Notes under the pieces: generated by a model
The model's database searches: none
The model's input: only the letters and a program-made list of their open reading frames with translations
What the model was told of the DNA's origin: nothing
Shown: piece after piece, positions 1 to 56,131 of the stretch
Position numbering within the stretch: the stretch's first letter is position 1
How the letters are laid out: each line of letters begins with the position of its first letter
Position numbers and translations under genes: made by a program
NCBI RefSeq assembly: GCF_025526975.1
Contig: NW_026515690.1
Span: forward strand, 1-64,000
DNA length: 64,000 nucleotides
DNA from: Fimicolochytrium jonesii
Lineage: Eukaryota
Direction: 5' to 3'

Positions 1-3000
1 GATGGAGCTGTTCATCCCCACCAGCGAAGATCTTGTCCCCCAATGGCAAGTCATTCGAAAAGACCGCTTGATGGGGAGCCATCTGATGTCCCTCCGCAAC
101 ACCACCGGTATGCTCTCCTCCCATCGTCCACAAACCATTCGCCTGATCGCCCGCAACCAACGGATGATCGCTGTTCCCGAATTTCAAACCATCCACATGG
201 CCGCCGAACAACTGTATGACCGGATCCAACTCATCATCGGCTACCTTTGCGCCACCTGCCTGCTCTCCCCGAATGCGGCTCTCGCGGTTGCTAGGCAGCT
301 CATTGCGAATTACACTGTCGTGCCAACGTGGCCCCGCGACGTCACAAGGCTTCAGCTCCCAAGCGTGCCCATCCAGCAATCGGGTGACACGTCCAACTCC
401 GTTGACATCGCCTTCTTGACCTCCATGGCGTTGAGTGATCCGTGGGCGCAGAGCGGATCCCAGGTGCGACAATTGCTGACTGAAGGTGCAACGGCGCACC
501 GTCACCGGGAATCTGTTCGGAACCATATGGAAAGCGCTTTAGCCACGGGTGGTTATTACTTCATCATTGCTTACCCTCGATATGCTTGGGTTCCAAGTCG
601 AATCGGCTTCGGTGTGGTATCAACGTTTTTGCCTCAGAACGTTGCCGGTCACTCGGAGCTGCACCAGACCTCCAGCTCGGCTCAGTTCTTCACTCAAGTC
701 CTGATCCTTCAGCAACCCGTTGCTGGCAGAGTTAGCGGTGTCCTTATCTCTGCTCACGATCCCGCCGCTTTCTCCTTTGAAAGTGTTGCCCAAGTCCTGA
801 GGACCGCCGCGTCCACATTGATCTGGTCAGGTGCTCAACCGCGCATAACCGACCGCAACATCACCTTCACAGCACCCATCCAGTGGAGCTCTCTGCCGGT
901 CCCACTCTTCCGTTCAGATGGCGCTATGAATACCTGGACCTCGTCCAATCGCCTCGTTTCCGCCGTGCGCGCCATGCCTCCCATGGGAAATGTTGTTACG
1001 GACTCCGAGGCCCAGCGGAATGCGGCAGCACAACCCAGTCCGAGGACAGATGCCCTCGCACAAGCCCTGTCGCAGGCCTCAACCGTTATCCTGTACATCC
1101 GCGCGTCGACAATACTCCAAACGGAGGCCGGGCGAGGAGGTTTGGAACGGCAATTGGTCTCTATGGTCAACGCGATCAATGCTGTTGGATTGCCTACTCC
1201 ACCCACGCGGGCCATCATAGCCGTTGAGTACTGTTCCACCAGTCAGCATCCATGGCGCGACCGTCGTCTTTTTCCACTGGTGACCCAGAGACTCTCTCAG
1301 GCTCCGACCGCTGGTGGTACTGTCCTCATGACGGTAAACCCGGATCGCCTCACCCGCCGCGGCGATGAATTCGAAGACATCTTCAGCGACCTCGTCGATG
1401 CCAACATCACCTGGGTTACCCAAGGCGTCGTGCCCGCGACGTCAACTTGGAGACAAGGACTTCCAGCGAGTCTCGATCTGATACATCAAGTCGCGCACGG
1501 CCGGGAGCTCGCGATCCAGCATGGCTTCTACAGTCGTTCGGTAGCAGCCCAAGTCCGCGTCATCACAAGCGACCAAGACGAGAGTGTGAAGCATATCCAA
1601 GAAGGGACAACGAGTTTGCTGAAGGGGTCAAAGTGGATCGTCATAGCCATTCTCCGCATCAGCCCACCTTTGTTCGTTAATCAAGGCCCGACTCCTCCGG
1701 GGAGCCTGGACCGACAACTGACTTTCCTGCAGTCCTTCTGCATCGAGCCCATCGAACATGTGCTTCGCCTAAGTGGAGTCTCAGCCTACAACGGTACCGC
1801 TGTCGAGCAGGTCCGCCTCCGCATCGCCACACTTCCCGCCAACCCCCCTGCACTTTGCCTCGTTGCTTCCGTTGACCGCCTCCTTCGACGGTCCTCTCAA
1901 GTCCAAGTTGCCGAACAACATCTCGCAGGTCGGCACAACATTATCTCCTTCTTGTGGTCATACGAGACAGTGGAATCCCTCCTAGATACCGACGAAGGCA
2001 TGGCCTTCCTCTCGTCTGTGTGTGCAGATATACGCCCTTTCCTGGATCAGCTTGCCATGGGCAGTAACGCGCTCGCATTGCCGATCGTGTGGCCCATGCT
2101 CTGGTTCGATCACGACAACGGGCTCACAAACCCTGCCGTACTCCAAAGCGCCGGGAAGGCCGAGGACTTCTGTACGGGGTTCATAGCCTCACAGTGGCAA
2201 GGTGAGCCCAGCACCGAGTTGCCGCGGAACCTTCTCGATGTGGGTGATTCCGTCGCAAGGGGTTTCCATGACCAACGGCGCGCGGCCTGGGAATCATATG
2301 TCGAAGGAGCGCTACCCGATACCAATACGCAAATCATCAGTTTGCAAGGTACAGTACGGAATCCGTTTCCTCATGCAAACCAGAGACACGTACCATACTG
2401 ATCTTCCTCTCCTCATCTCAATCTCACCAAGGAAAACAAGCGTGGGACTGCTCCTGTCCCGCCGCATCTCGGAATCAACCGCATTCAGAGGAGTGTGTCT
2501 GTGACTGCGCCCACTGCATGGAACAGAGATCTTCATCCTGCCCATGTAGCTATGACGACATTATCCGGATCACTCCTCGGACAAAGCAGGCGTCGTTATC
2601 CCCTGCGCTTTGCAGGTGCCATGCCTTGTGCACGTGCACATGCGTGTACTGCCACAAGCCTGGAAGTCGAACGCGGAGTAAGTATCGTTCCTGTATATGT
2701 GTAACTTCGTCTTGCCAACCTTTTCGCATGTTTTCTGCTTCCCTAGCCTTGAAACGGACTCGCTCTGACCTGACGGATCCTTCAAGCCAATCACAACAAA
2801 GTCAACTGACTCAATCCGCCTCCGGTTCACAACAGCAGGAAGGTCAACTGACTCAATCTGGGTCCGGGTCGCAATTGACGCCTCTCGTGTTTGCGGAAGT
2901 GGGAGAAGACCCAGCGAGTGACGTGAGCTTGCCGCCTCCAGCGGCCTCCACTTTGACTCCAGCGACTTTGGCAGCAACTGGCTCCGTGCTGTCGAAGTCG

Positions 3001-3875
3001 AAGTCAATGGAGTCGCCAGAGCCGCTGGAGTCTGGGAGTCCATTGACTTCGCCTTCGACAGCAACTCCAGTGACTGCAGCGACTCGACCAGCGCAAGCCG
3101 TTGGCCCCGCAACTGGCCGAGTACCCTTTCAGCGCATCCCGCGCATGACGGCACCGGTCAGGGCAGTTGATCCTAGAGAGCGCATTCGTGCTCCGATACG
3201 ATCCCGGAGAGGATCCCCCCTTGCTGCAACGGTAACGACTTCTGTTCCCACCCCGCCTGCGACTCAAGCGCAGCATCCGCTGTTTAGTCTCCCGCCAACA
3301 GCAACTGGACCGGTTGGGAGCAGCACTTCCACTTCCGGATTGCTTCCTTTTGGCAGACTTCCGCCGGGAGTTCAGATGGGGGCCAGGCTTCCTCCGGGCG
3401 CCCCGCTGCCTGGGCCTGCACATAGGACGTGCGAGACACCCGGATGCTCAAATCCAGCTCCACTTGGAGGTGCCGGAGGCATGAAATGCCAACCTTGCTA
3501 CAAGAGGTCCCTCCAAGATCGGAAGGCCGCCGCGGGGGACTCGATATGTGCACGTCCTGGCTGTGATAACCGTGTCACAAACAAGAAGGTCAGATACTGC
3601 AGTACCGCTTGCTACGAGCAAACGACAGCAAACCCAAAAGAAGTGCCCCACCTGCGGCAAGGTGGTTCTCCCAGGCCTGGGAAGATTTTGTGAGGCCCAT
3701 GTTGTGCGAACCAAGAAACAGAGGAAGGAGTAGGAGCTGGTGGATTGTGCACAGTAGTGTGTTGAGGTGCTGTATATCGGGGCGGGATCAGTTTGTGAGG
3801 CCGCTTAGTGAGAATCGCGGCTTATGGGGATGCCGTCAATTTCGACGCGCCCGTCGTACCCTACATCCTACTGTA
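1..3875. mobile_element. Right part of a putative TIR-bounded element carrying the tandem serine-recombinase gene; terminus ...CATCCTACTG|TA at 3864-3875
   Basis: 3830-3858 is an exact 29-bp reverse complement of 37729-37757 inside the MITE. 3864-3873 plus TA equals the MITE terminus. The other end is not in the window. Confidence 0.6.
2..3733 (+). CDS. Large spliced protein with two tandem serine-recombinase/resolvase-like catalytic domains, a Cys-rich segment, an S/T/P-rich linker and C-terminal Cys/His zinc-finger-like motifs. May be 5'-truncated by the window edge; apparent 1-bp frameshift near 3635.
   Basis: Domain 1: VILYIRAST..Q...GLERQ...E..S...RDR...VLMTVNPDRLTRR (Ser codon 1106). 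Domain 2: IAILRISP...SLDRQ...SGVSA...CLVASVDRLLRR (Ser codon 1661). Both match the Y-x-R-x-S...L-x-x-Q...S...DRL-x-R serine recombinase pattern. Intron 2349-2431 (GT...TACTGAT...AG) joins ORF 2..2401 in frame to ORF 2518..3693. A probable 69-nt intron lies at 2678-2746. Confidence 0.8.
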
Positions 3876-3989
3876 CATATATGTAGGATACGTTGCTACA
3901 ACGGCGTAGTCAGATTGGTAGCCGAAGAGAAGGTGTAAACATCAATAGCATCTTAACGTGCATTCCGGTGTATCAACGTTGAAATTTCA

Positions 3990-4384
3990 ATGGAAAGTCC
4001 GCCGTCCCTCGTATTCACCACAACAAGCGTGTTCCCCACGAACACCTTCACTGTCACTGAAAACCGGGAGCACGGACAGTGGGACACCCAACGCTGGTCG
4101 TGCCATAGCACCGGAATTTGGTGGCGCCGAACGGGACTGTTGTATGTACTTGGAGCGGGCCCGTTGCAACCTCCAGAGGTCCCTGAACCTTCGCAGCAAA
4201 CAACAGGTCACCTTCGAAGCGTGCACCTCCACCACGGACCACCAACGTGAAGATCGTCCCTAGCGGTGAGTTGCCTGCCACGGTGAACGTGGACCTAGAG
4301 AACGTGGAACGCTCCCTCACCGTTCTGAGGAGCGAACCGAGGTGGCAGGTGCTGAAGGACCGCACCAAGTTCATTCCAGTCTAA
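3990..4384 (+). pseudogene. Possible small decayed or hypothetical gene
   Basis: ORF MESPPSLVF...WWRRTGL, a GTATGT...CAG candidate intron, and a coding-looking tail ...NVKIVPSGELPATVNVDLENVERSLTVLRSEPRWQVLKDRTKFIPV* in a shifted frame. No recognisable domain. Confidence 0.25.
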
Positions 4385-4801
4385 GTAATGGTCAACTATG
4401 TAATTGGCAGTCTGTCCACGTTAAAGCGCTTGCGAGGACGTAAGGACGTTAAAGCGCTTGCGAGAATATTATGTAAAGCGTCGTTGAAGTTGTGGATGGA
4501 AGTATTCGAGCGTGAAGCGGATGGTGGTTTCGCGTCGTTTTTAGGATAGGCTTTGAGGATTCTCAGGATGCACTAATACTACAACAACGCATGGCTCGGA
4601 TGTTGATTTGGCTCGCAGAGAGAGAATGCGGGTGATGGAGTGCGAGAATGCGAGTGAGAGAGCGAGAAAGAAAGACGGAGTTGCGAATGAGAGAGCGAGA
4701 GTGAGAGTGACAGGAATCGAGGTCGATAGCTTGGATGTGGCGAGGAGACTATAGCGAGCAATCTAAACTTATTCATAACGTCCGAAGAAATTTGTCCGAA
4801 G

Positions 4802-4934
4802 AAAAAAAAAATTGTCCCTCCGAAGAGGGGATCCACTCTAGATATGCGTGTCATCCTTGCACAGGGGCCATGCTAATCTTCTCTGTATCGAAATCCAATA
4901 TAGTAAGTGTCAGAGGGGTGTTGCCACCCTTGAC
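4802..4934 (-). ncRNA. U6: U6 spliceosomal snRNA
   Basis: Minus strand reads GUCAAGGGUG-GCAA-CACCCCUCUGAC (5' stem-loop)...CGAUACAGAGAAGAUUAGCAUGGCCCCUGUGCAAGGAUGACACGCA..., containing the ACAGAGA box, AGC triad and ISL, followed by a T10 Pol III terminator. Confidence 0.97.
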
Positions 4935-13802: not shown

Positions 13803-16347
13803 TTACATGATAGTGCATCCCTTGCCCTTCTTCTTTTTGTCTTTGGGCGCTTTGCCGGGTTTCTTTCCCTTCGCAGGTTCTGGGGCCGGAACGGGGGCGG
13901 CGACGGTATCGGGTTCCGCTGCGGGTGCGACAGGCGTGGGTTGTGGTGGTGCAGTGACGGCGGCGGCGACCGCGGCACTGTCGGCTGGTGTGAGGGAGGT
14001 GCTGGTTTTCGGTGACCGGCTGAACCGCTTGTTCTTTTTGGCGGTCGACGTGGACGCCCGTGGTGTATATGCTGGATCTCCGTTTGCGAGTTGTATTGCG
14101 GCAACCTTCTCAGCGAGTTCTTTTACTTTTCCTTTGGCTTTCTCGTCACCCGCCGCCGCGGCACGTTCGTACCATTGTAGCGCAATCGGGATGTCGACAT
14201 GTCGCGATGGAGCTGGGTCGGTACTCCTCTGTTGTTCATGCTCTGCGGAACCTTCGGGGAGGTCAGCCTTGTGTGCGTCTCCTTGTTGCTGCCGTTGTTG
14301 TTCTTCGGCCGGATATGTATCGCGGCCTATCCCCATTTCGCAAAAGTATCCCATCGCAAACATGGCCTTTGGCAGACCACCTTCCGCGGCGAGCGAAACC
14401 CATCGGTAGGCTTCGGCATCCGACTGTACGAGGGTGAAAGCTGTTGCTGGATCGGATACACCAGTGAGATACCAGCCTCCCAGCTCAAACATCGCCTGAT
14501 TGATAGCAAAAGGAAACACTCGTAAGGAAGCTGTTCACGTTAACAAACCGGCAATCCAACAAACATACCTCCAGATTGCCATTCGCAGCTGCCAAACTGT
14601 AGTAGTAAACACTGCGTCCGGGGTCCACATTCACCGAGTAATAACCATACTCATAAGCCTCTCCCAACTTGAACTGGCACCCGCCATGTCCTAAAGCGGC
14701 ACCCTGTGTCAACAGCTCCACCAGGTAGTCGTGATCTTGCCACACCACATTGTGAACGCCGCGATCGTGCAGGATGGCAAGCTCGTAGAGGGCTTGGGGG
14801 TATTTCTCGGTGGCGTACTTGGCGGCCAGCTTGAGCCACTTGACACCGTCACGAGGGTTTTTCGACTGGTTGAGTTCGCCGCGGAGGAGACACATGCCGA
14901 GACGGAACATTGCACCGGGGTGGTTACTGGAAATCAAAACAGGGACATGTTTAGTCACCAGCAAAGTTATGTCAATCACTTCCAGAATGTGATATGCTTA
15001 CCTGACAGCGGCCTTGCGATAGTTGTGCAAGGCGCGGTTATTGCTCTGTCCCACTCCAGCTCCTTGCTCATAGCACAATCCAACGTGAAACAAAGCCTCA
15101 GGGTGGTCCTTCTTTGCTGCGGACAAGTACAACTGGAACGCTTTTGAGTAGTCGGCCTTGTGCTTTTCTTGGAAACCAGGGATACCGCTGATGTACAGGT
15201 TGGCGAGGAGATACTGGGAATCCACCAGGCCTGCAATTGAAAGCTTCTTCAACGTCTTGATGGCGAGTTCACATGTCAGCTTCTGCTCCTCCTTATCGAT
15301 GAACTGCACATTGTCAACTATGAAACGAGCAGCCTCGAACGATTGTGCTTTGTCTTTCGATTTCTTTGCCTTCAGTTTCATGTACTCCATACGCTGAGGC
15401 AGGGAAGCGTTCGCGAAACCGCGCGAGATCTCTGACCCGATATCGGACTCAGCATCGGAGCTGGTACCGTCCACTACGCTGGAGTCGCCGATGGACATGC
15501 GACCGGGGTTTTCCGAGCCACTGTCGTCGCCGGAGAATAACGAAGGGACCAGGGACTGCCGACCCGTTGCGAGGAGTCTTCGAGGCGGGATGGCATCGGA
15601 GGACTCGACGCTAGATACAGATTCGGCATAATCGTCACCGCCTAGCATCTGGCGACCGTTCTCAACAGGGCTGTCACACATAGTATCCGATTGTGCGAGA
15701 ATCTTTTGGCTCGACGGGGCAACTCTGCTTAATGCTTCGGAGGAGCTTTTCGCGCCAACTTTCTTCTGCGGTACAGAGAGCGGGGCCGGAGGCAGGGGGA
15801 CCGAGAGGGGCTGCGGTAGGTTGCGATGTTCCGGAGCTGGATTTTCTACTCCCGCCACATGTGCTGTCAAACTCTGAGCCAAAGTTCCGGTGGGTACTGG
15901 AGTATCGATCGTTGGCGACCGTTCATGTTGGGATACGGGGTTTTGGCGTCCGTTCTGTGATGAGGAGGTGGTCGTACTCGGTATGCTAACCGTCTTGTCG
16001 GCCAGGGACGCATTGGACTGTGCTCCATCTCTTGACGAAGAGGTAAGCTGAATTTGACCATTCCTCACTTCAAGCAACAGTGGATTGGCGGACGTCGGTG
16101 AGGGAATAGGGCCGTTGGATGTCTGAGTGGCCGACCGCGGTCGAGGCGACACGAACTCGCTTTCCTGGCGAACTTCAGGATTGACGTCTCCATTTTCCGT
16201 TCGCACTTGGCTCTCCGGCGAACGGTTGTTACCGGATTCGTCACCGTCGAGAAGCGGCGTTTCCCTTAGCCACTTCTCCACGACCAATTTCGACTTTGTA
16301 GTCCTGGACCCTGTCGCTATTGGGACTGGGACAGCAGCTGCCGGCAT
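13803..16347 (-). CDS. Sel1-repeat protein with C-terminal CaaX; chitin synthase activator Chs4/Skt5-like (multi-exon; start uncertain)
   Basis: Multiple Sel1 repeats (ALFHVGLCYEQGAGV, AMFRLGMCLLRGE, AMFELGGWYLTG, AMFAMGYFCEMGIG); polybasic C-terminus KKKKGKG-CTIM*; disordered N-terminus. Confidence 0.85.
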
Positions 16348-29330: not shown

Positions 29331-29592
29331 AGCAGATCGCTTCTGTATCCGATGTAGTTGTCATCCCTGTTCCCGGCGGAGGTGCTGTCTCACTGCTGTA
29401 TATATTTGGATTTTTCTTGTATATAAAAGATCTTCGAGCCTTGAACCTTAGGCCCGCTAACCATGGACACTCTATGCTGGGTGGCCTAAGCCTTCCGCGC
29501 TACTACGCCATGGGTTACCGCTTTTGGGAGTTTCACTGTAGATATACAGTACTGTACGTGACTTTCTTGACGGAACCGGGCGATGAACATCC

Positions 29593-37697: not shown

Positions 37698-37705
37698 ACC
37701 AGTTA

Positions 37706-37904
37706 CAGTAGGATGCCAAAACGGACGTTACGACGGGCGCGTCGAAATTGACGGCATTTGGGCTACTACCTAGGTTAGTAGTCGCGGCTGGCCGGCCCCC
37801 GGTCAACCACGCAATGGCTAGACGGCAGCCGGTGACTTCTGCTGGCCACAAAGATTTATTGACCGCGTCCATGCCGTCGTAACGTCCGTTTTGGCATCCT
37901 ACTG
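37706..37904. mobile_element. 199-bp MITE with perfect 31-bp TIRs and flanking TA dinucleotides
   Basis: TA|CAGTAGGATGCCAAAACGGACGTTACGACGG (37706-37736) ... CCGTCGTAACGTCCGTTTTGGCATCCTACTG|TA (37874-37904); no coding capacity. Confidence 0.93.
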
Positions 37905-38489
37905 TACTTTATCGTCGCATAGCTTGTCATTGCATGTATAGCAGCGCCAGTTCGCCCAGGCGTATGAAGTGCATCAAAACCTATTCCTGCATCTTAAAGC
38001 TCTTATATGGCTTTTACGGTCTGCGTCGGCGGATTGCATTATTAAATGATTCGGCTCGATCTCAACAGGCGGTCATCAGAGAAGCGCTTCCCCCTGGACG
38101 CAGGTAAAAATCTCTGTGGCTCTCACGATAAACTGGCGGCGTAGCCGGACAGTGCTGCCACGCGGTGGCATCGTCGGTTCATTGAATGGATTAAGTCGAT
38201 GGTTGCAAGGATTTTAACTGCGTCCAGGGAGAAGCAGTGGATGATGTGGATGAGGGAGTTATGGAATTTGTCAAGGTAGCGTGCCTTGAGGAGTTTGCCG
38301 GCGTCGGAGGTGTCGGGTCCCCAGAGCTTTGACGAGTGTTATCTGGTGACGCCTGGGACGCTTTCTCGCGGTGCAGGGCAGGGTGCAGGGATTGAGAGCT
38401 GGATTGAGAGGATTGTGGGGATGTGGCAGTGTTGGGCGGTATCACAGTGCACCCCCCTCGAAGCCAGACGACACTTCGTGTGATGTAAC

Positions 38490-48677: not shown

Positions 48678-49912
48678 AGCGATGGGGTTGAAATCATGTA
48701 CGTAGGCTAGATAGCGGAGACTCCAGCACAAGTTTAGCCGTATTTTCTGTGTTTTTGTCCTTTTTTTGGTTGTGCTTCCCTTTCGTCGTCGGCCCTTACG
48801 GCCTTCATGTTATCGTCGTGGAACGGACTGGCTCCAGAGGCGACGGAGATCAGCTTTTGCTTGGAATACCCGACCATTTTTTTCATGGCCATTTATTCTT
48901 CTTTGATGTACATCCCTTGACTTTCCCTCGTACATCTTTGGAGTGGTTAGACGAACTCACCTTCAGTGCCTGCCCTGATCAACAATTTTTTTTCGGAGAT
49001 TACCATGACATCACTTCTTTAGGCCTTCTAAGGTAAATCAGTTATAGTGGTTACAACTCCAAGTGAAACTCTGGAGTCTGGGCAAATACAGGATAGCACG
49101 GGCAAAGGTGGAACCTCACAACCGAGCATCCCGAATTTTACTACGATGAATGGAGACCCTGACTCAAGAGCCAGCTAAGGCCAGAGCAGTTGACGGATGT
49201 GACACTTCTTTGGGCTTCCGCGTCAGTCCAGCGAATAGCAGGACCAGGAACCAGAAAATGACAGCCATTTGACGGAGGGCAGATCACGCATCCCTGCGTG
49301 GCTTTTCGCGCCCGCCGACGGCCAACTCGTAAAGTTCTCCCGAGTTCATGGCCGCACACGCACGGTCTCGAAGAAGGCTGAGAAGGTGTGGACGGGCTCA
49401 GGGAGTGTACAATACGTACTGTACAGTACTGTACAGTATGAGAGAACATGATAATAAAGCGAAGGGTATTACCGGGGACCGACAGCCTGTTGAGCAGATT
49501 CCCCAAAGTGAGGCTTGGCCCGCGATTGAAGTTGTGTTCTGCGTGTCGCCCCTCTCGCTTGTCTTGGCCAACTTCCGCCCGCAAGGGACCGCCTAGCCCT
49601 CGTTATTCCTTACGACCAAGGAGGCAACCGCCAGCCGTCTCCTTTATTCTTTTCACGAAGGCACAGCCAGGCGAGATACCGTTCGGCAGGTCAACACCTC
49701 TGGTTCATAAGCTTGCATGCAACCTGTCAGACTCTCCGAAGCGCATTTCACACTTCCGCCTCCAGCCTTCTTCGGAGTGTTCCCCGTTGGGCAACCACTA
49801 CCATCGATATTCAACCATTACATTGCAGACTACCTTATCCCGCACATAGCTTCATTTTTTGAGAGAAGAACAGATAACAACGTCTTGGAAGCACGGAGAC
49901 CGCTGATCTAGT

Positions 49913-52900
49913 ATGAACCCTCCAGCGACTTTCGGGGAAGGTCGGCCCTCGCAGGATTTCAATGGGTATGAACGACCTCTACCCACCTTACCTCAAAACC
50001 AGTACCGGCCTTCACCACCAGGGAGCCCGATGCCGATACACTTTCCTGTTCCACCACCTCATATGCGCTTGCCCAACCCGAACGCCTCAACAAGCAAACC
50101 TCTGGCACCTCACGAAATGATTGCTTTGGCGAACACGAAGAATGCAAAGTCTGGGGGTGGCGGCTGGTTGAAGAAGGTCGTGGTCGGGTTTGGAAAGAAA
50201 GGGAAGCTGCAGGATGCTTTGGGCGGCGGAAGTGATACCGGCTCAAAGCCGACTGGAAACGCCCGAGCCTCGCCTTTGAGCTTGGCAAACTACCAGAACA
50301 TGCCCGCGGCATCGAAACCCAGTACAGATCCACCCCCTCGCTCACGGCAGTCATTAGCATCAGATTTGAACGAGAGGTCTAGTTCGTCTTTGCGACCAAC
50401 GATTGGATCTAGTGAAAGCAGTGGATTGGAGAATGTGCAAGGGGGGTTCCATTTGGCCACCGCCGCGGAGGACGTCCATGCACCTGCCACGTCCAGGGGA
50501 ACCCCATCTTCCAATCCGTCTCATGTTCGGGACATTTCCTCATCTTCTGGCTCGACACCAGCGCTCGCAAAGAATCAGCCTCGGCCGCAGGGTCCGCGGC
50601 CATTAAGCGAAGCCCCTCTCCAGATGGTCGAAGCTGGTCCCCCAACTCGCCCAATTCCTGGAACGGCCAACACTACATCCCAGCACCCACCGCGGCACAC
50701 AGGGCAATCACTGTCAGGAGGAAGCGGAATACCCACGCCAGTCTCAGGCGTTGATGGCGCGCATGTTCTGCAGTCCGGCGGTCCCATACCACCATTCCCT
50801 AGCCCGCCACTGGAGCTTGACGGACGGCAGCCTGCTGGGAGGCGGCATCCCAATTTACCACCCTTTGAATCTTTGAATGTGCAGGACGCAACCGGTGAAA
50901 CTCCACCACGTTCACCAGACTTGCGAAAGGGAGGACTGCCACATCACGTAGATAATCGCCCCCCTTCACGCTTCAGTGACGAATCCGGACGCCGGCTGGT
51001 ATCACGCGCAAGCTTGCCATCGCTTCAGAGCAGAGGAAGTGGATCGACGGGTTACCCGAAAAGCGACGTCTCCTCCTCGTCAGGGCCCGCCGAAGTTTCG
51101 CGAAATAGCGGGACATTTTGGACCGTGAAGCGATCTCCAGGATCCAGTGCTCCGCAATTGGCCGTAAAGGATTCGGACATTCTGTGCCCGAACTCGTTGA
51201 TCAGCGAGTTGGCGCCTTGGGAAGCCTCGGAGATCTCGAAGGAGGAGTCGCTGGAGCACTCCATCCTTCAAGAAGTGTCCAACACGACTGCAGGAGACAC
51301 TGGAGGAGGTGTTGGGGACGTTGGCGATGGCACAAAGAAGGTAGCACGGAACACAGGGAGCCCCCCAATACCGGCGAAGGACCGGGCCCCCGGAGGAGCA
51401 AGTCTTCCTGCAAGTATCCCACCTCGACGAACGGCGCAGCCTTTCGGCACCCCGACGGATAACTCAGTGGGCAGAGAACATGTGTCTCTCGCTGGCCCTC
51501 TAAATTCTGGCCCAAGTACCTACTCTCTCCCCGCCGACCGAGGTATCTCCAATCTCAATCACAAAGGTGACCCGTCGCTCGTCTCGCTCCCCAACATGCA
51601 TACCGGAGGTCAACGAAGGATGAAGTCACCACCTCGCTGGGAAAGTTTGCTGGATGAACAAGCTGGAGAGCCCCTGGCGAATATGACGAGGACAGGCGCG
51701 AGCACAGAGAGAAGAGAGAGTACTGGAACGCCAGCGGAGCAGACGGAAACACTGCTGACTGCGCCAACGCCTGAGGTGCAAAACCGAAACAGCGTTCAAG
51801 CTCCAGAACCGAGGAATTCGCCGGCTGCCCACCAGCCTGCTGCAATTGCCTCACCTGCAACTGTTTCGGATGCTGAGCCAGACTTGAATAGGTCCGGTTC
51901 CGAGATTTCAGAATCTACCGCACCGCACTCCGAGATCGTCATGCAGCAGGTCACCGAACAAGGCCCCGTCACCACCGCTTCCTCCGTCTTGTCCAAGGTC
52001 GGCGCTGCGGCTGGAACCGTCATCGGAGCCGTTGCTGGCGGCGTCGTCGCTGCTACACAGGTTGCCACCGACGTTGCCTCGCTTGCCGTTGGCCGCCCTC
52101 ACGAGCACAATACCCTCCCCGCCGAAGACCGCGGCGAAGAGGAAGCCCACAGCATTCCGCGATCTGACACCGCTGCACAGATATCCAAACCGAAGCCTGA
52201 CATTGTTGCTGGAGATGATGTGGCACTGCCGCCGCGAGGAGACTCGTTGCGACCAGCCCCACTGGAATCATCCTTTCTCTCGTCCTCGTCGATGACGGGA
52301 AGCCCCTCGGAAGCCGCTCCGACAACCTCTGCGATAGAGGATAGCTTGGTTACTGCAGCTTCTGTCACTTCTCCGCAGCTCGGGTACAGCCCAGGGATTC
52401 CACACCGTGATGGCACCTTTGGCCAACAGGTTGGGTCCGCTCAGGCACCGATTGCGGAAGGGCATCTTCTTTCTGTCTCGGCCACACCAAACTTGCTTTC
52501 AGAGTCCCCAGAACTTGAGACTCCCATCTTGAGCCCCACAAGTCCCTTCTCGGCTATCTCCGATGGAACCACAGTCTTCGGTCATGACTCACTACATCGA
52601 GCGGCGGATTCCCTCGGAAGAAGCTCCCTTGCGAGTACCGAAAGTACAGCGGCAACCGACGCTCCATCTAGGGCTGGATTGTTTTCTGACCACGATCAAA
52701 CGCCATCTCCAGTATCGCCTTTTGAGGAGACCTTATCGCCACCGGAGTTTGCTGGAGCCGAAATTTCAACAGATTTGGGCTTCTTGAACCCGACAGGTTC
52801 TACCGGCGCAAACAGCCAAAGCTCGGAGACTCTGGCAGTACCTGCTGTACCGCTTCTTTTCAGGGCCATGGAAACCCCGCAGGCGACACCTCCAACTCCC

Positions 52901-55900
52901 TCCCCTGCGTCTTCGTCACACGAAGACGAACAAGCGCTTCCGGGAGCGGCCGGTTTGAGACCTAGCGCCACTGCACGATTACGGGACCGCGTCAAGAACG
53001 TCATGGCCAAGCATCGTCCATCGTTAGACGGGCAAAGGCCGAGTGCCGCGGATTTGAATGGAGTCAATGGGCCGTCTGTTGCCGCTGCTCCCCGGTCGGC
53101 ACCGATTCTGGGCGTGGATGATACCAAACCTGCCACAGGCCAAACTCTCCGGAATATTGCATCGAATGAATCCATTGGGGACAAGCGACGATCCTGGGGA
53201 CACCCGAAACTAAGCATTGTCACTCAAGGTCTACTTCAACCCTCACTGATCCATCACCAACAAGATCCGCATGTTATTCAGCATGCGCAACCCGACAAGC
53301 GCGCTTCTTATAGAAGCGGGAGCACAGCGTCCATATCCTCCGCGTCATCCACGACAGCCAGACAGTCAGTCCGCCCCGCCGCACCTACCCGCACCGTATC
53401 CCAAGCCCCTAGTCACGGTTCTTCGGACGGACCGTCAGAGACGAATGTATACCCAGCTCGAGGCGCTAGCCTTCAAACGTCCGTGGTACGGCTCCTGCCC
53501 ATTGTCGACACGACCTTACCGTCACCTCCTGTTCACGTGTATAGCGATATGACCGATGCGTACGCAGATGATGGAGACGTTTCACCAGAGACCATGGCGC
53601 CGCGTCGAGTAGTGCAGTCACCCGTGAACGAAGGCGGCGCGGAATCGGAGTTCTTCATTTCACCAACCGGTGGCTCTTACTCATCCGCGCCCGTCGTTCT
53701 GCCTGCTACGCCCATTGAGCCAACCTTCCCAGTCGAGGACTATGCGGCCCAGCCGTCTCCATCCACCAGTGCTGACGGACCCTCCACTCCGCGATCACTC
53801 ACAGCAAGCGTGGAGGCGGTTGAGAACGGAGCCTTCGTACCGAACAGAAGGTCGTTGCAGGTCAATGGAGCTATTCAACATGCGTACCAGAGGGTCTTGA
53901 GGAAGTATGCCAGTTTTTCGATTCCCGCGCATGCCAATCCAAGTCTGGCTTCGATCATAGAACAGAATGAGGCGGAAGCTGCGAAGGACGGCCCCGGCGA
54001 CGAGCAGTGGAGGCCAAGAGATGGCTCGATGAACGGACACTTGATGGTTGAAACTGTCAGTGGTAGAGCTGAGCACTCTTTGAACGGCATGGCCCGCGAG
54101 ACCCACTTTGACGAGGAGCAAGAAGCAACCGAGCAGGACCGCATCAGTGATGGTTCCCTGCATTCGTTTCAAGACTCAATCTCCGGAGATACGATCTCTG
54201 GGTTGGACAGTCCTGCGGAAACAGGAAATGCTGATCGCCGAAGTATCGGAGAAGGAGATTGCTTGCAACATCAGCATATTGGAGCTGAAGCTGAAGAGGA
54301 CCCACTGCCTCCGCGAACAACGTCGCAATTGGCGTTGAACGCGCCGCCCGTCAATGGCCACCACTTTGACGGACCAAGCGAAGTGAACCTTACTGACGCT
54401 AGGGCAAATCGAGGGCCTTACAAGGCGCATTCGTCTATCAACCTCGGGGCTGCGTACAGGGGAGCTCAACAAGAACCCCCGCAACAAGATCTGGACAAAA
54501 ACCGTCACCTGCAACACTCTATTTCTATGCTCGATATGCAAAGTAGCAGCAGCCCACGGGATCTTGACATTCCGATGGACGTCCCTTCTTCGGCTGCTCA
54601 GGCATTCTTTGACAGGTTGGCCCTTTCGAGAAATCAGCAGCAGCAATCACATCAATCTGGTCACGGCAACGCCTCTTCGTCCGGATTCTTGGCGCCGGGA
54701 CCCATGCGCCAACCGCATTCGCCGTCTCCAAGTTCCCCAGCATCTAATCAACGCTGGGAGTTGGAACCTCCTGCCGTATCATCGGATCCGGACGTTACGT
54801 ACGCGGACTCGGATGATGGCCACGGCCAGGATGTGAACTCAAGCCCGCAGATTCCGGACAGGCCCGGGTCGCCGTACTCGTTTGTGTCCGGTGCTTCCAT
54901 CAGGTTGACCAGGAATCATCCCCGGTTTGCGAACCGTCCGGGTGGAGCTGGTTCAGTGACGGCGGGGGGTGTTGGAAGGAAGTCTGTGGAGGCTTTGGCT
55001 AATGCGCGATCAAGGGACAATATGAAAGGCATGAGGCCGTCACCACAGCCTGAGCAGCCGCAGCAGCCGCAGCAACAACAGCAGCAGCAGCAGCAGCGGG
55101 ATAGGCGCGAATCGGCAGCTTCGGGCGCATCGACGACTCCGTCCGCACCATCTGGGGCAGCACCACATGCCCCTTCCTCGTCGACCTCCTCCGTGCAGCT
55201 GCATGGCAAGCAATCCGGCAAGGATGGTTCAACCCAGCAACTTGACCAGGCGTTACCTCCGCGCCGGGACTCCGCGGACGTGAGGGGAGGTCAAATGGCA
55301 CCACCACATGCTTATCACCAGCAACACCGTCAGCTACATCCGGCACACGGCCCAGCGGGATCTCATGCGTCACTACTCTTCGATCCAAGTCTTCATGCTC
55401 CCCATCATCACTACCCAACCTATTACGACCCGCACGTCGTCGGCCCAGACGGTCGAAGCTCGTACCTCGGCCACCCGCACTACCCTTACGGCCCGCACGC
55501 CTCGGCTTACCTTGCGCCAGCTGCTGGACCGCCACCACCGGGCTTATACGCTGGCCAGCCAATGGTACCCACAGGTTACGGTCCTGATGGATATGCCACA
55601 TTCGATTACAACTATACGTATCCGCAAGTAATGCCGCCACCCCAGCCAGGATACCGTGTCCCACAATTGCAGCATCACGCGTCCATGAGCATGATGCGAC
55701 CCGTTGGGACACCACCCTCAGGAATGATGTACGGCCAACACCCACCCTCTTCGCCTCATAGCGTGCATCGCCATTCTGAAGGCTACGATCGTGCTTCAGG
55801 CGCTGCGTTTGCGTGGCCGCCACCGCCGCATCTCATGGCAGGTGGGACGCTGAACCGATCCCCAGGAGGACAGAGGGGCATGGCCCAGCCGGCGCCATTG

Positions 55901-56131
55901 GCAGGCGCAAATGGCCAGTCCGTCGCACAGCCGCACCCAGGGACCGTGATGGCACCGAACGGACTCCGGAACCCGAACGCGATGGAGCTGTCGCCTGCCG
56001 GAACAAAAGCGACCCCGTCAACGCAGAAGCAAGGAAAAGGTGGCCAGTCTCCACCAAACGGGAAGGCGGACGGGGATAAGGACAAGGAGAAGGACAAGAA
56101 GAAGGGTGGCTGGAAGGGCATATTCAGATAG
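49913..56131 (+). CDS. Very large intronless low-complexity (S/P/A/Q-rich) hypothetical protein, 2072 aa
   Basis: 6.2-kb uninterrupted ORF with a polyQ tract near 55050-55097, a P/Y/H-rich segment and a basic C-terminus KKKGGWKGIFR. Confidence 0.8.
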   Translation: MNPPATFGEGRPSQDFNGYERPLPTLPQNQYRPSPPGSPMPIHFPVPPPHMRLPNPNASTSKPLAPHEMIALANTKNAKSGGGGWLKKVVVGFGKKGKLQDALGGGSDTGSKPTGNARASPLSLANYQNMPAASKPSTDPPPRSRQSLASDLNERSSSSLRPTIGSSESSGLENVQGGFHLATAAEDVHAPATSRGTPSSNPSHVRDISSSSGSTPALAKNQPRPQGPRPLSEAPLQMVEAGPPTRPIPGTANTTSQHPPRHTGQSLSGGSGIPTPVSGVDGAHVLQSGGPIPPFPSPPLELDGRQPAGRRHPNLPPFESLNVQDATGETPPRSPDLRKGGLPHHVDNRPPSRFSDESGRRLVSRASLPSLQSRGSGSTGYPKSDVSSSSGPAEVSRNSGTFWTVKRSPGSSAPQLAVKDSDILCPNSLISELAPWEASEISKEESLEHSILQEVSNTTAGDTGGGVGDVGDGTKKVARNTGSPPIPAKDRAPGGASLPASIPPRRTAQPFGTPTDNSVGREHVSLAGPLNSGPSTYSLPADRGISNLNHKGDPSLVSLPNMHTGGQRRMKSPPRWESLLDEQAGEPLANMTRTGASTERRESTGTPAEQTETLLTAPTPEVQNRNSVQAPEPRNSPAAHQPAAIASPATVSDAEPDLNRSGSEISESTAPHSEIVMQQVTEQGPVTTASSVLSKVGAAAGTVIGAVAGGVVAATQVATDVASLAVGRPHEHNTLPAEDRGEEEAHSIPRSDTAAQISKPKPDIVAGDDVALPPRGDSLRPAPLESSFLSSSSMTGSPSEAAPTTSAIEDSLVTAASVTSPQLGYSPGIPHRDGTFGQQVGSAQAPIAEGHLLSVSATPNLLSESPELETPILSPTSPFSAISDGTTVFGHDSLHRAADSLGRSSLASTESTAATDAPSRAGLFSDHDQTPSPVSPFEETLSPPEFAGAEISTDLGFLNPTGSTGANSQSSETLAVPAVPLLFRAMETPQATPPTPSPASSSHEDEQALPGAAGLRPSATARLRDRVKNVMAKHRPSLDGQRPSAADLNGVNGPSVAAAPRSAPILGVDDTKPATGQTLRNIASNESIGDKRRSWGHPKLSIVTQGLLQPSLIHHQQDPHVIQHAQPDKRASYRSGSTASISSASSTTARQSVRPAAPTRTVSQAPSHGSSDGPSETNVYPARGASLQTSVVRLLPIVDTTLPSPPVHVYSDMTDAYADDGDVSPETMAPRRVVQSPVNEGGAESEFFISPTGGSYSSAPVVLPATPIEPTFPVEDYAAQPSPSTSADGPSTPRSLTASVEAVENGAFVPNRRSLQVNGAIQHAYQRVLRKYASFSIPAHANPSLASIIEQNEAEAAKDGPGDEQWRPRDGSMNGHLMVETVSGRAEHSLNGMARETHFDEEQEATEQDRISDGSLHSFQDSISGDTISGLDSPAETGNADRRSIGEGDCLQHQHIGAEAEEDPLPPRTTSQLALNAPPVNGHHFDGPSEVNLTDARANRGPYKAHSSINLGAAYRGAQQEPPQQDLDKNRHLQHSISMLDMQSSSSPRDLDIPMDVPSSAAQAFFDRLALSRNQQQQSHQSGHGNASSSGFLAPGPMRQPHSPSPSSPASNQRWELEPPAVSSDPDVTYADSDDGHGQDVNSSPQIPDRPGSPYSFVSGASIRLTRNHPRFANRPGGAGSVTAGGVGRKSVEALANARSRDNMKGMRPSPQPEQPQQPQQQQQQQQQRDRRESAASGASTTPSAPSGAAPHAPSSSTSSVQLHGKQSGKDGSTQQLDQALPPRRDSADVRGGQMAPPHAYHQQHRQLHPAHGPAGSHASLLFDPSLHAPHHHYPTYYDPHVVGPDGRSSYLGHPHYPYGPHASAYLAPAAGPPPPGLYAGQPMVPTGYGPDGYATFDYNYTYPQVMPPPQPGYRVPQLQHHASMSMMRPVGTPPSGMMYGQHPPSSPHSVHRHSEGYDRASGAAFAWPPPPHLMAGGTLNRSPGGQRGMAQPAPLAGANGQSVAQPHPGTVMAPNGLRNPNAMELSPAGTKATPSTQKQGKGGQSPPNGKADGDKDKEKDKKKGGWKGIFR

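Follow-up and report, generated by a model that had tools for sequence, protein, structure and literature searches.

The 44-bp transposon end behind a fungal tandem serine-recombinase gene may well be a damaged solo MITE terminus

Introduction

Tc1-like elements have been described with termini of the form CAGT...ACTG and a TA dinucleotide at the flanks (PMC4054914; PMC13469147). Among elements of this kind, TACAGTA and TACTGTA are the canonical excision footprints of Sleeping Beauty (10.1101/659086; PMC5224488), TACATA and TATGTA are the two footprints of Tc1 (PMC12632400; see also PMC7913693), and single-ended products are known for mariner and Sleeping Beauty (PMC5224488). Excision by serine recombinases (SRs) is described as resealing the host or donor DNA through a circle (PMC4058570). 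In its accessible part, PMC2715888 covers only yeast SR genes of the IS607 type, and PMC6431247, likewise as far as accessible, mentions SRs only for bacterial ICEs.

Here, we analysed a window of 64 kb, by which we mean the whole stretch of DNA under study. In this window an SR gene with two tandem catalytic domains is followed by a 44-bp piece that matches the end of a MITE located 34 kb away in the same window. A preliminary description had put the gene and the MITE forward as a candidate autonomous/non-autonomous pair and had offered the recombinase either as a possible mobiliser of the MITE family or as cargo of a pogo-like element.

Results

The tandem serine-recombinase gene

The gene and its two catalytic domains were located as follows.

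2..3733, plus strand: tandem SR gene, traced by tblastn with the homolog P0001, which shares its architecture in four pieces
1082..1411 (approximate), plus strand: SR domain 1 with R367, S369, Q384, D448, R449 and R452 (Pfam PF00239 E 0.053, conservation, fold Z 8-9)
1637..1966 (approximate), plus strand: SR domain 2 with R552, S554, Q572, D625, R626 and R629 (conservation, fold)

The encoded protein consists of an N-terminal domain, two SR domains, a Cys cluster, a linker and C-terminal zinc fingers. Introns are predicted at 2349-2431 (83 bp, before the Cys cluster) and at 2678-2746 (69 bp, before the linker). The stop codon of the predicted spliced gene, TAG at 3731-3733, lies 96 bp before the piece at 3830-3873, and the uninterrupted recombinase ORF already ends at 2401. 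The earlier placement of the piece about 100 bp after the stop codon therefore holds for the predicted spliced, frame-changed gene but not for the uninterrupted ORF. Relative to P0001, a +1 frame change near 3640-3652, either a mutation or an assembly error, removes the last zinc finger of the protein. Because homologs extend further at the N-terminus (P0001 by 29 residues, other members further still), the 5' end of the gene is probably cut by the window edge.

The RxS nucleophile motif, the Q and the DRxxR motif are present in both SR domains, with a residue numbering of the catalytic motifs that we take by analogy to gamma-delta. A model of the 444-residue core reached a pLDDT of 92.6 and a pTM of 0.88, and each half of this predicted structure matched SR structures with Z 8-9.6 (rmsd 2.4-3.9 over 103-159 residues), SR domain 2 matching Sin and gamma-delta resolvase at Z 8.7-9.0. 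Foldseek alone gave no match at E <= 0.001 with the core model, and a profile search matched the protein to the serine integrase 9iu2 (E 7e-4). That the gene upstream of the piece encodes a real tandem serine recombinase, as had been stated from first sight of the sequence, is borne out by the catalytic residues and the SR fold retained in both domains. Pfam detected no HTH, recombinase or zinc-ribbon domain of known type in the protein. Atlas look-ups, used as leads only, scored 0.90-0.92 for the core and at most 0.86 for the N-terminal part. The N-terminal 340 residues (window 2-1030), which have no Pfam match and no Atlas score above 0.86 in this family, are conserved among homologs and carry a W-x(3-4)-R-x-D-R-x(2)-G-S-like motif. 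The Ser/Thr/Pro-rich linker region of the gene contains a 28-bp inverted repeat (93%) at 2987-3063.

Relatives of the recombinase in other genomes

The closest homolog, from the chytrid Phlyctochytrium arcticum, shares 46% identity over the core. A search of 1.84 billion representatives returned a family of 91 hits, each a cluster at 50% identity, and its named members (22 looked up, plus an added search) belong to chytrids, Mortierellomycota and, within the Ascomycota, Dothideomycetes and one Sordariomycete. It is an old family with diverse members throughout the fungi. In conservation counts over 90 hits, with P0046 left out as a repetitive false match, the catalytic serine of the first domain is kept in 65/65 and that of the second in 59/72 rows with a residue at the respective column; both serines are kept in 35 of the 40 homologs that cover both sites. 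No DDE domain was present in the 64 of 91 family representatives scanned, and a search of the 1860-5000 aa range yielded no longer homologs.

Two copies in P. arcticum, P0001 and P0006, are 84% alike and lie on different contigs, copies from two Zymoseptoria strains are 63% alike, and A. pullulans has two lineages at 28%. Such paralogs within species, together with long branches, suggest from sequence comparison that the family is mobile.

Pattern scans for the SR protein confirmed none of the candidates from viral contigs (0/24 and 0/12) or prokaryote genomes (0/6) and four of 13 from metagenomes, the loci L001 to L004. L002-L004 come from three close assemblies and correspond to a single orthologous site, where a decayed SR copy lies between ordinary genes. 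The fourth, L001, is a 5.8-kb contig with a broken SR copy and signs of scrambling. A TA-anchored TIR pair enclosing the SR gene was found in 0/4 loci, of which two are independent and neither is intact, and TACAGTAGG was absent from all four. L001 also contains a perfect 95-bp inverted repeat (1307-1401 / 2102-2196) in coding-like sequence upstream of the SR homolog, and each end of this contig carries Cys-rich pieces on the opposite strand; several copies may have been collapsed into one during its assembly.

The MITE at 37.7 kb

37706-37904 (37704..37906 with the TA flanks), plus strand: MITE of 199 bp forming a strong hairpin (DNA fold -67.1 kcal/mol)

This short non-coding element has perfect 31-bp TIRs with a TA on each side and termini reading CAGT...ACTG, and a scan of the 64-kb window revealed it as the sole TA-anchored perfect TIR element. 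The reading of such ends as a Tc1/mariner signature, made at the outset, agrees with what PMC4054914 and PMC13469147 give for these elements. The terminal 10 bp of the TIR occur in three exact copies in the window, namely at both MITE ends and at 3864..3873. No DDE transposase was encountered among the long ORFs of the window and the 73 of its 140 mid-size ORFs that were scanned, and exact DNA-pattern scans for the end gave 0 matches in the viral, metagenome and prokaryote collections. A second small inverted-repeat element of 150 bp (38086-38235; 24-bp arms, 92% complementary, no TA flanks) sits 180 bp from the MITE.

A 44-bp copy of the left MITE end

The piece behind the recombinase gene and its flank resolve into the following parts.

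3830..3858, minus strand: left end of the MITE, subterminal portion (its positions 24-52), reverse-complementary to 37729-37757 at 29/29 bases
3859..3863, minus strand: 5-bp spacer where the MITE has 13 bp, with a CGTA match on one side and a CAT match on the other
3864..3873, minus strand: terminal 10 bp of the TIR, CAGTAGGATG on this strand, exact match
3874..3885, no strand: TA target dinucleotide, opening the 12-bp palindrome TACATATATGTA
3881..3892, plus strand: flank segment, inverted counterpart of the altered spacer region (11/12 match to 3855-3866)

The likeness to the MITE that the preliminary description had noticed stood up at every base. The match of the 29-bp part to 37729-37757 has a BLASTn E of 1e-9, with about 4e-8 such pairs expected in 64 kb, and positions 3864-3875 (CATCCTACTG plus TA) equal the MITE terminus and its flank at 37895-37906. 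The two sequences differ in the spacer, as had been said, and outside it the piece is identical to positions 1-10 and 24-52 of the MITE left end in 39/39 bases plus the TA. We conclude that it is a genuine end of the MITE's family. The shared sequence extends 21 bp beyond the TIR into a stretch that is present only at the left end of the MITE. Precisely at the last GACGGCAT motif the homology ends; this motif is also found at the other MITE end.

A partner end was not found in positions 1-3830, the best candidates matching at 16/31 and 8/10; a left end could lie just outside the window, which begins at the ATG of the gene. A second, back-to-back MITE end after the TA was rejected, as 398 of 4975 random 60-mers score equally well, and so was a near-match at 14417 that falls within Sel1 coding sequence.

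Altered spacer and inverted flank

Read in inverted orientation, the flank at 3881-3892 agrees with 3855-3866 at 11/12 positions. All five altered bases fall inside this inverted copy, framed by 4-bp and 3-bp matches to the intact end. A dyad of this strength was reached by 4 of 39,838 random 25-mers/flanks in a test that was picked after the sequence had been seen; a coarser test with 60-mers gave 63/4975. Matches of the intact MITE end are at background level, with 8/12 for the same flank and 8 and 7 of 12 for its own flanks. Snap-back templated repair shows such a pattern in the accessible text of PMC2943611, and the spacer is likely a templated repair insertion; judged from the sequence, it resembles a scar of local repair more than a subfamily end. 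One snap-back templated repair event accounts for both the spacer and the dyad. The templating could also have run the opposite way, a variant end serving as template for the flank.

The palindrome at 3874-3885 reads TACATA+TATGTA. Perfect 12-bp palindromes begin at five of the 2018 TA sites in the window, the other four being of the TACAGTACTGTA type. In view of the Tc1 footprints cited above, the two halves at 3874-3885 are possible older footprints of Tc1 type. Neither the inverted match between 3855-3866 and 3881-3892 nor the palindrome TACATATATGTA figured in the earlier reading; both were found here.

Footprint-like heptamers across the window

TACAGTA/TACTGTA occurs 19 times in the window, compared with 1.59 in shuffles, and 0/100 shuffles reached 19. 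No other 7-mer is as over-represented relative to an order-2 Markov model, which predicts 2.8 occurrences of this one; the excess is smaller under a maximal-order Markov model (19 vs 11.2), and the next TA-NNN-TA class has five occurrences. Seventeen of the 19 lie outside a rough list of long ORFs, vs 53% of all TAs. Three are element ends; the remaining 16 form 12 stand-alone sites, two of which (at 29545 and 49417) are stacked runs.

2350, 10923, 17673, 18804, 20623, 29545-29556: stand-alone TACAGTA/TACTGTA sites, candidate Tc1/mariner excision footprints
32601, 38803, 38898, 49417-49438, 56353, 60637: stand-alone TACAGTA/TACTGTA sites, candidate Tc1/mariner excision footprints

The unrelated locus L002 has two such heptamers where about two are expected. 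The site at 2350 falls at the very start of the first predicted intron of the SR gene. The sites in the window may have originated as footprints. With SR excision being clean, their excess makes it likely, as far as sequence can tell, that CAG-ended TA elements in this genome move by DDE cut-and-paste. The heptamer could alternatively be a regulatory motif, a slippage motif or the trace of another CAG-ended family.

Genomic neighbourhood

A Blm10/PSME4 gene lies at 6-12 kb, and the window contains spliceosomal introns. A U6 snRNA gene (4821-4925) is situated 0.9 kb from the piece. Together these features mark the window as fungal, and with a chytrid as the source of the closest recombinase homolog, the host is probably an early-diverging fungus. 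The U6 gene is on the minus strand (window 4770-4925). Its 3' end points toward the SR gene, and beyond it come short, imperfect repeats of the final bases of U6; no larger U6 duplication was found in the region. Targeting of U6 was considered and rejected, given that there is no duplicated piece and no RNA gene near L001-L004. The sequence between the piece and U6 (3960-4600) is coding-like, interrupted by stops and without Pfam match, possibly a pseudogene. An open frame of 2,074 codons at 49907-56131 likewise has no Pfam match.

Discussion

The reading that we favour, with somewhat better than even confidence, takes the 44-bp piece at 3830-3873 for what a Tc1/mariner-type MITE left behind as a damaged solo end, with the SR gene as its neighbour. 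From the MITE identity of the piece, the dyad, the footprint-like excess and the lack of a partner end within the window we infer three steps: insertion, loss of the remainder and repair. A member of the MITE family would have inserted at the TA at 3874-3875 behind the recombinase gene. A break at this TA, through failed excision or the hairpin of the element, would then have lost the rest, or only 52 bp would have been copied back, and microhomology-mediated repair would have put 5 bp of flank-derived sequence in place of 13 bp of the TIR. As a bystander, the recombinase gene would belong to a separate, probably mobile, fungal family. A stray MITE fragment, which the preliminary description had named only as an outcome that would overturn its proposal, thus fits best. 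The pairing of gene and end as autonomous and non-autonomous partners is not supported and more likely coincidental: the end looks damaged in place, and no TA-flanked TIRs were found at the four related loci, which count as weak evidence.

Next in standing, and doubtful though worth serious consideration, is that the SR gene is cargo of a larger DDE-moved element with these ends, whose second end lies upstream of the window and whose right end was damaged by repair. The piece does point outward behind the SR stop, at a distance of 96 bp, and the shared sequence ends at a motif boundary; a homology that stops at GACGGCAT is what would be expected of two different elements with just the functional end in common, and it speaks for a larger element. 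Precedents are fungal TA/TIR elements with non-transposase ORFs, such as SPu-1 with Fanzor1 (PMC3627910; PMC10432273), and the Dici elements, which carry three CDS (PMC13469147), and the footprint enrichment would fit cargo equally well. Against this, a TA-TIR pair surrounds the SR gene in 0/4 related loci, a weak objection, the 64 of 91 family representatives scanned lack a DDE domain, and capture by one MITE family would be a local event in a family as old and widespread among fungi as this one.

We consider it improbable that the tandem SR is itself the transposase of the TIR family, cutting at the TA core, excising a circle and moving the MITE in trans. The mechanism is allowed, in that the joint of such a circle would be a perfect palindrome around one TA; both catalytic serines persist in 35/40 homologs covering both sites, and the family behaves like mobile DNA, with its 84% P. 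arcticum copies, 63% Zymoseptoria copies and 28% A. pullulans lineages. Yet the excess of TACAGTA/TACTGTA implies imprecise DDE excision of CAG-ended elements, and known SR transposons, as described in the accessible part of PMC3627910, are without TIRs and TSDs. Moreover, the piece is damaged inside the TIR, neither TACAGTAGG nor a TA-TIR pair is present at the four related loci, and nothing positive links the enzyme to these ends. The earlier suggestion that the recombinase mobilises this TIR family is not supported in view of the TA-CAG-TA/TA-CTG-TA enrichment, the damaged end and the four loci at which no TA-TIRs were found.

Least probable of all is that the dyad at 3855-3892 is an att-like SR crossover site centred on G3873-T3874, with the MITE likeness secondary: its 12-bp arms match at 11 positions symmetrically about 3873/3874, but the inner 6 bp per side agree at only one position, the 39 bases identical to the MITE are unneeded by an att site, the MITE's own junctions show no such dyad, and a single repair event accounts for spacer and dyad.

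If the damaged solo MITE end is the correct reading, the terminus is ordinary transposon debris and is not usable to define the ends of a recombinase element. The contrary case, to which we give little credence, would be a class of eukaryotic transposons whose single-chain, two-domain SR recognises TIRs, carries out strand exchange at a TA core and moves MITEs that until now have been filed as Tc1/mariner from nothing but their ends. Were it true, the ends of TA-flanked TIR elements would no longer suffice to assign them to DDE transposases, and fungi would possess a class of SR transposons whose enzyme is a fused pseudo-dimer, of interest for mechanism and for genome engineering. Whatever the origin of the end, the tandem-SR family with both active sites kept is the more interesting object than the terminus. 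The MITE and its end belong to a known element type; for the tandem-SR family we found no description in the literature searched, which covered few subscription papers.

Compared with known systems, the MITE family is closest to Tc1/mariner (ITm) elements and their MITEs, including PpTc1/PpTc2 (PMC4054914), Dici1/2 (PMC13469147) and Sleeping Beauty, with which it shares the TA flanks and the CAGT start. A TIR of about 30 bp, the short non-coding derivative and the TACAGTA/TACTGTA footprint-like sites nearby add to this likeness. It differs in that no transposase was found in the window ORFs scanned, which leaves its placement at the level of ITm elements in general rather than of a subfamily (Tc1, pogo, mariner), and in that the piece at 3830-3873 is an altered end standing by itself.

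SPu-1 and the ghost Fanzor1 elements of Spizellomyces punctatus (PMC3627910; PMC10432273) are likewise fungal, with TIRs of about 30 bp and TA flanks as here. According to the same sources, they contain a non-DDE ORF and have ORF-less partners with similar but distinct TIRs. SPu-1 has both ends and many copies, whereas no Fanzor/TnpB ORF was detected here. Elements of the SPu-1 type have CATA immediately outside the left TIR (PMC10432273), which was seen at 0/3 of our ends, the outside 4-mers being GTTA, AGTA and TGTA; with neither CATA nor the ORF, Fanzor/ghost identity was rejected.

The IS607 family, including eukaryotic Fanzor2 and the SR genes of Lachancea (Saccharomyces) kluyveri, resembles the gene in placing an SR domain in a eukaryote on likely mobile DNA (PMC4058570; PMC3627910; PMC2715888). 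IS607 TnpA, at about 200 aa, has a DNA-binding domain at its N-terminus followed by a single SR domain, and the elements lack TIRs and TSD and have a TnpB partner. The SR protein, in contrast, has about 1,100 aa, two tandem SR domains, a Cys cluster and zinc fingers, and its gene has introns; the ORFs scanned downstream within the window gave no Pfam match to TnpB/Fanzor2. With the PF00239 proteins (gamma-delta resolvase, Sin, and the TP901-1 and Bxb1 integrases) both SR domains have in common the fold and the RxS, Q and DRxxR motifs. Unlike any of these, the tandem SR unites two catalytic domains in one chain.
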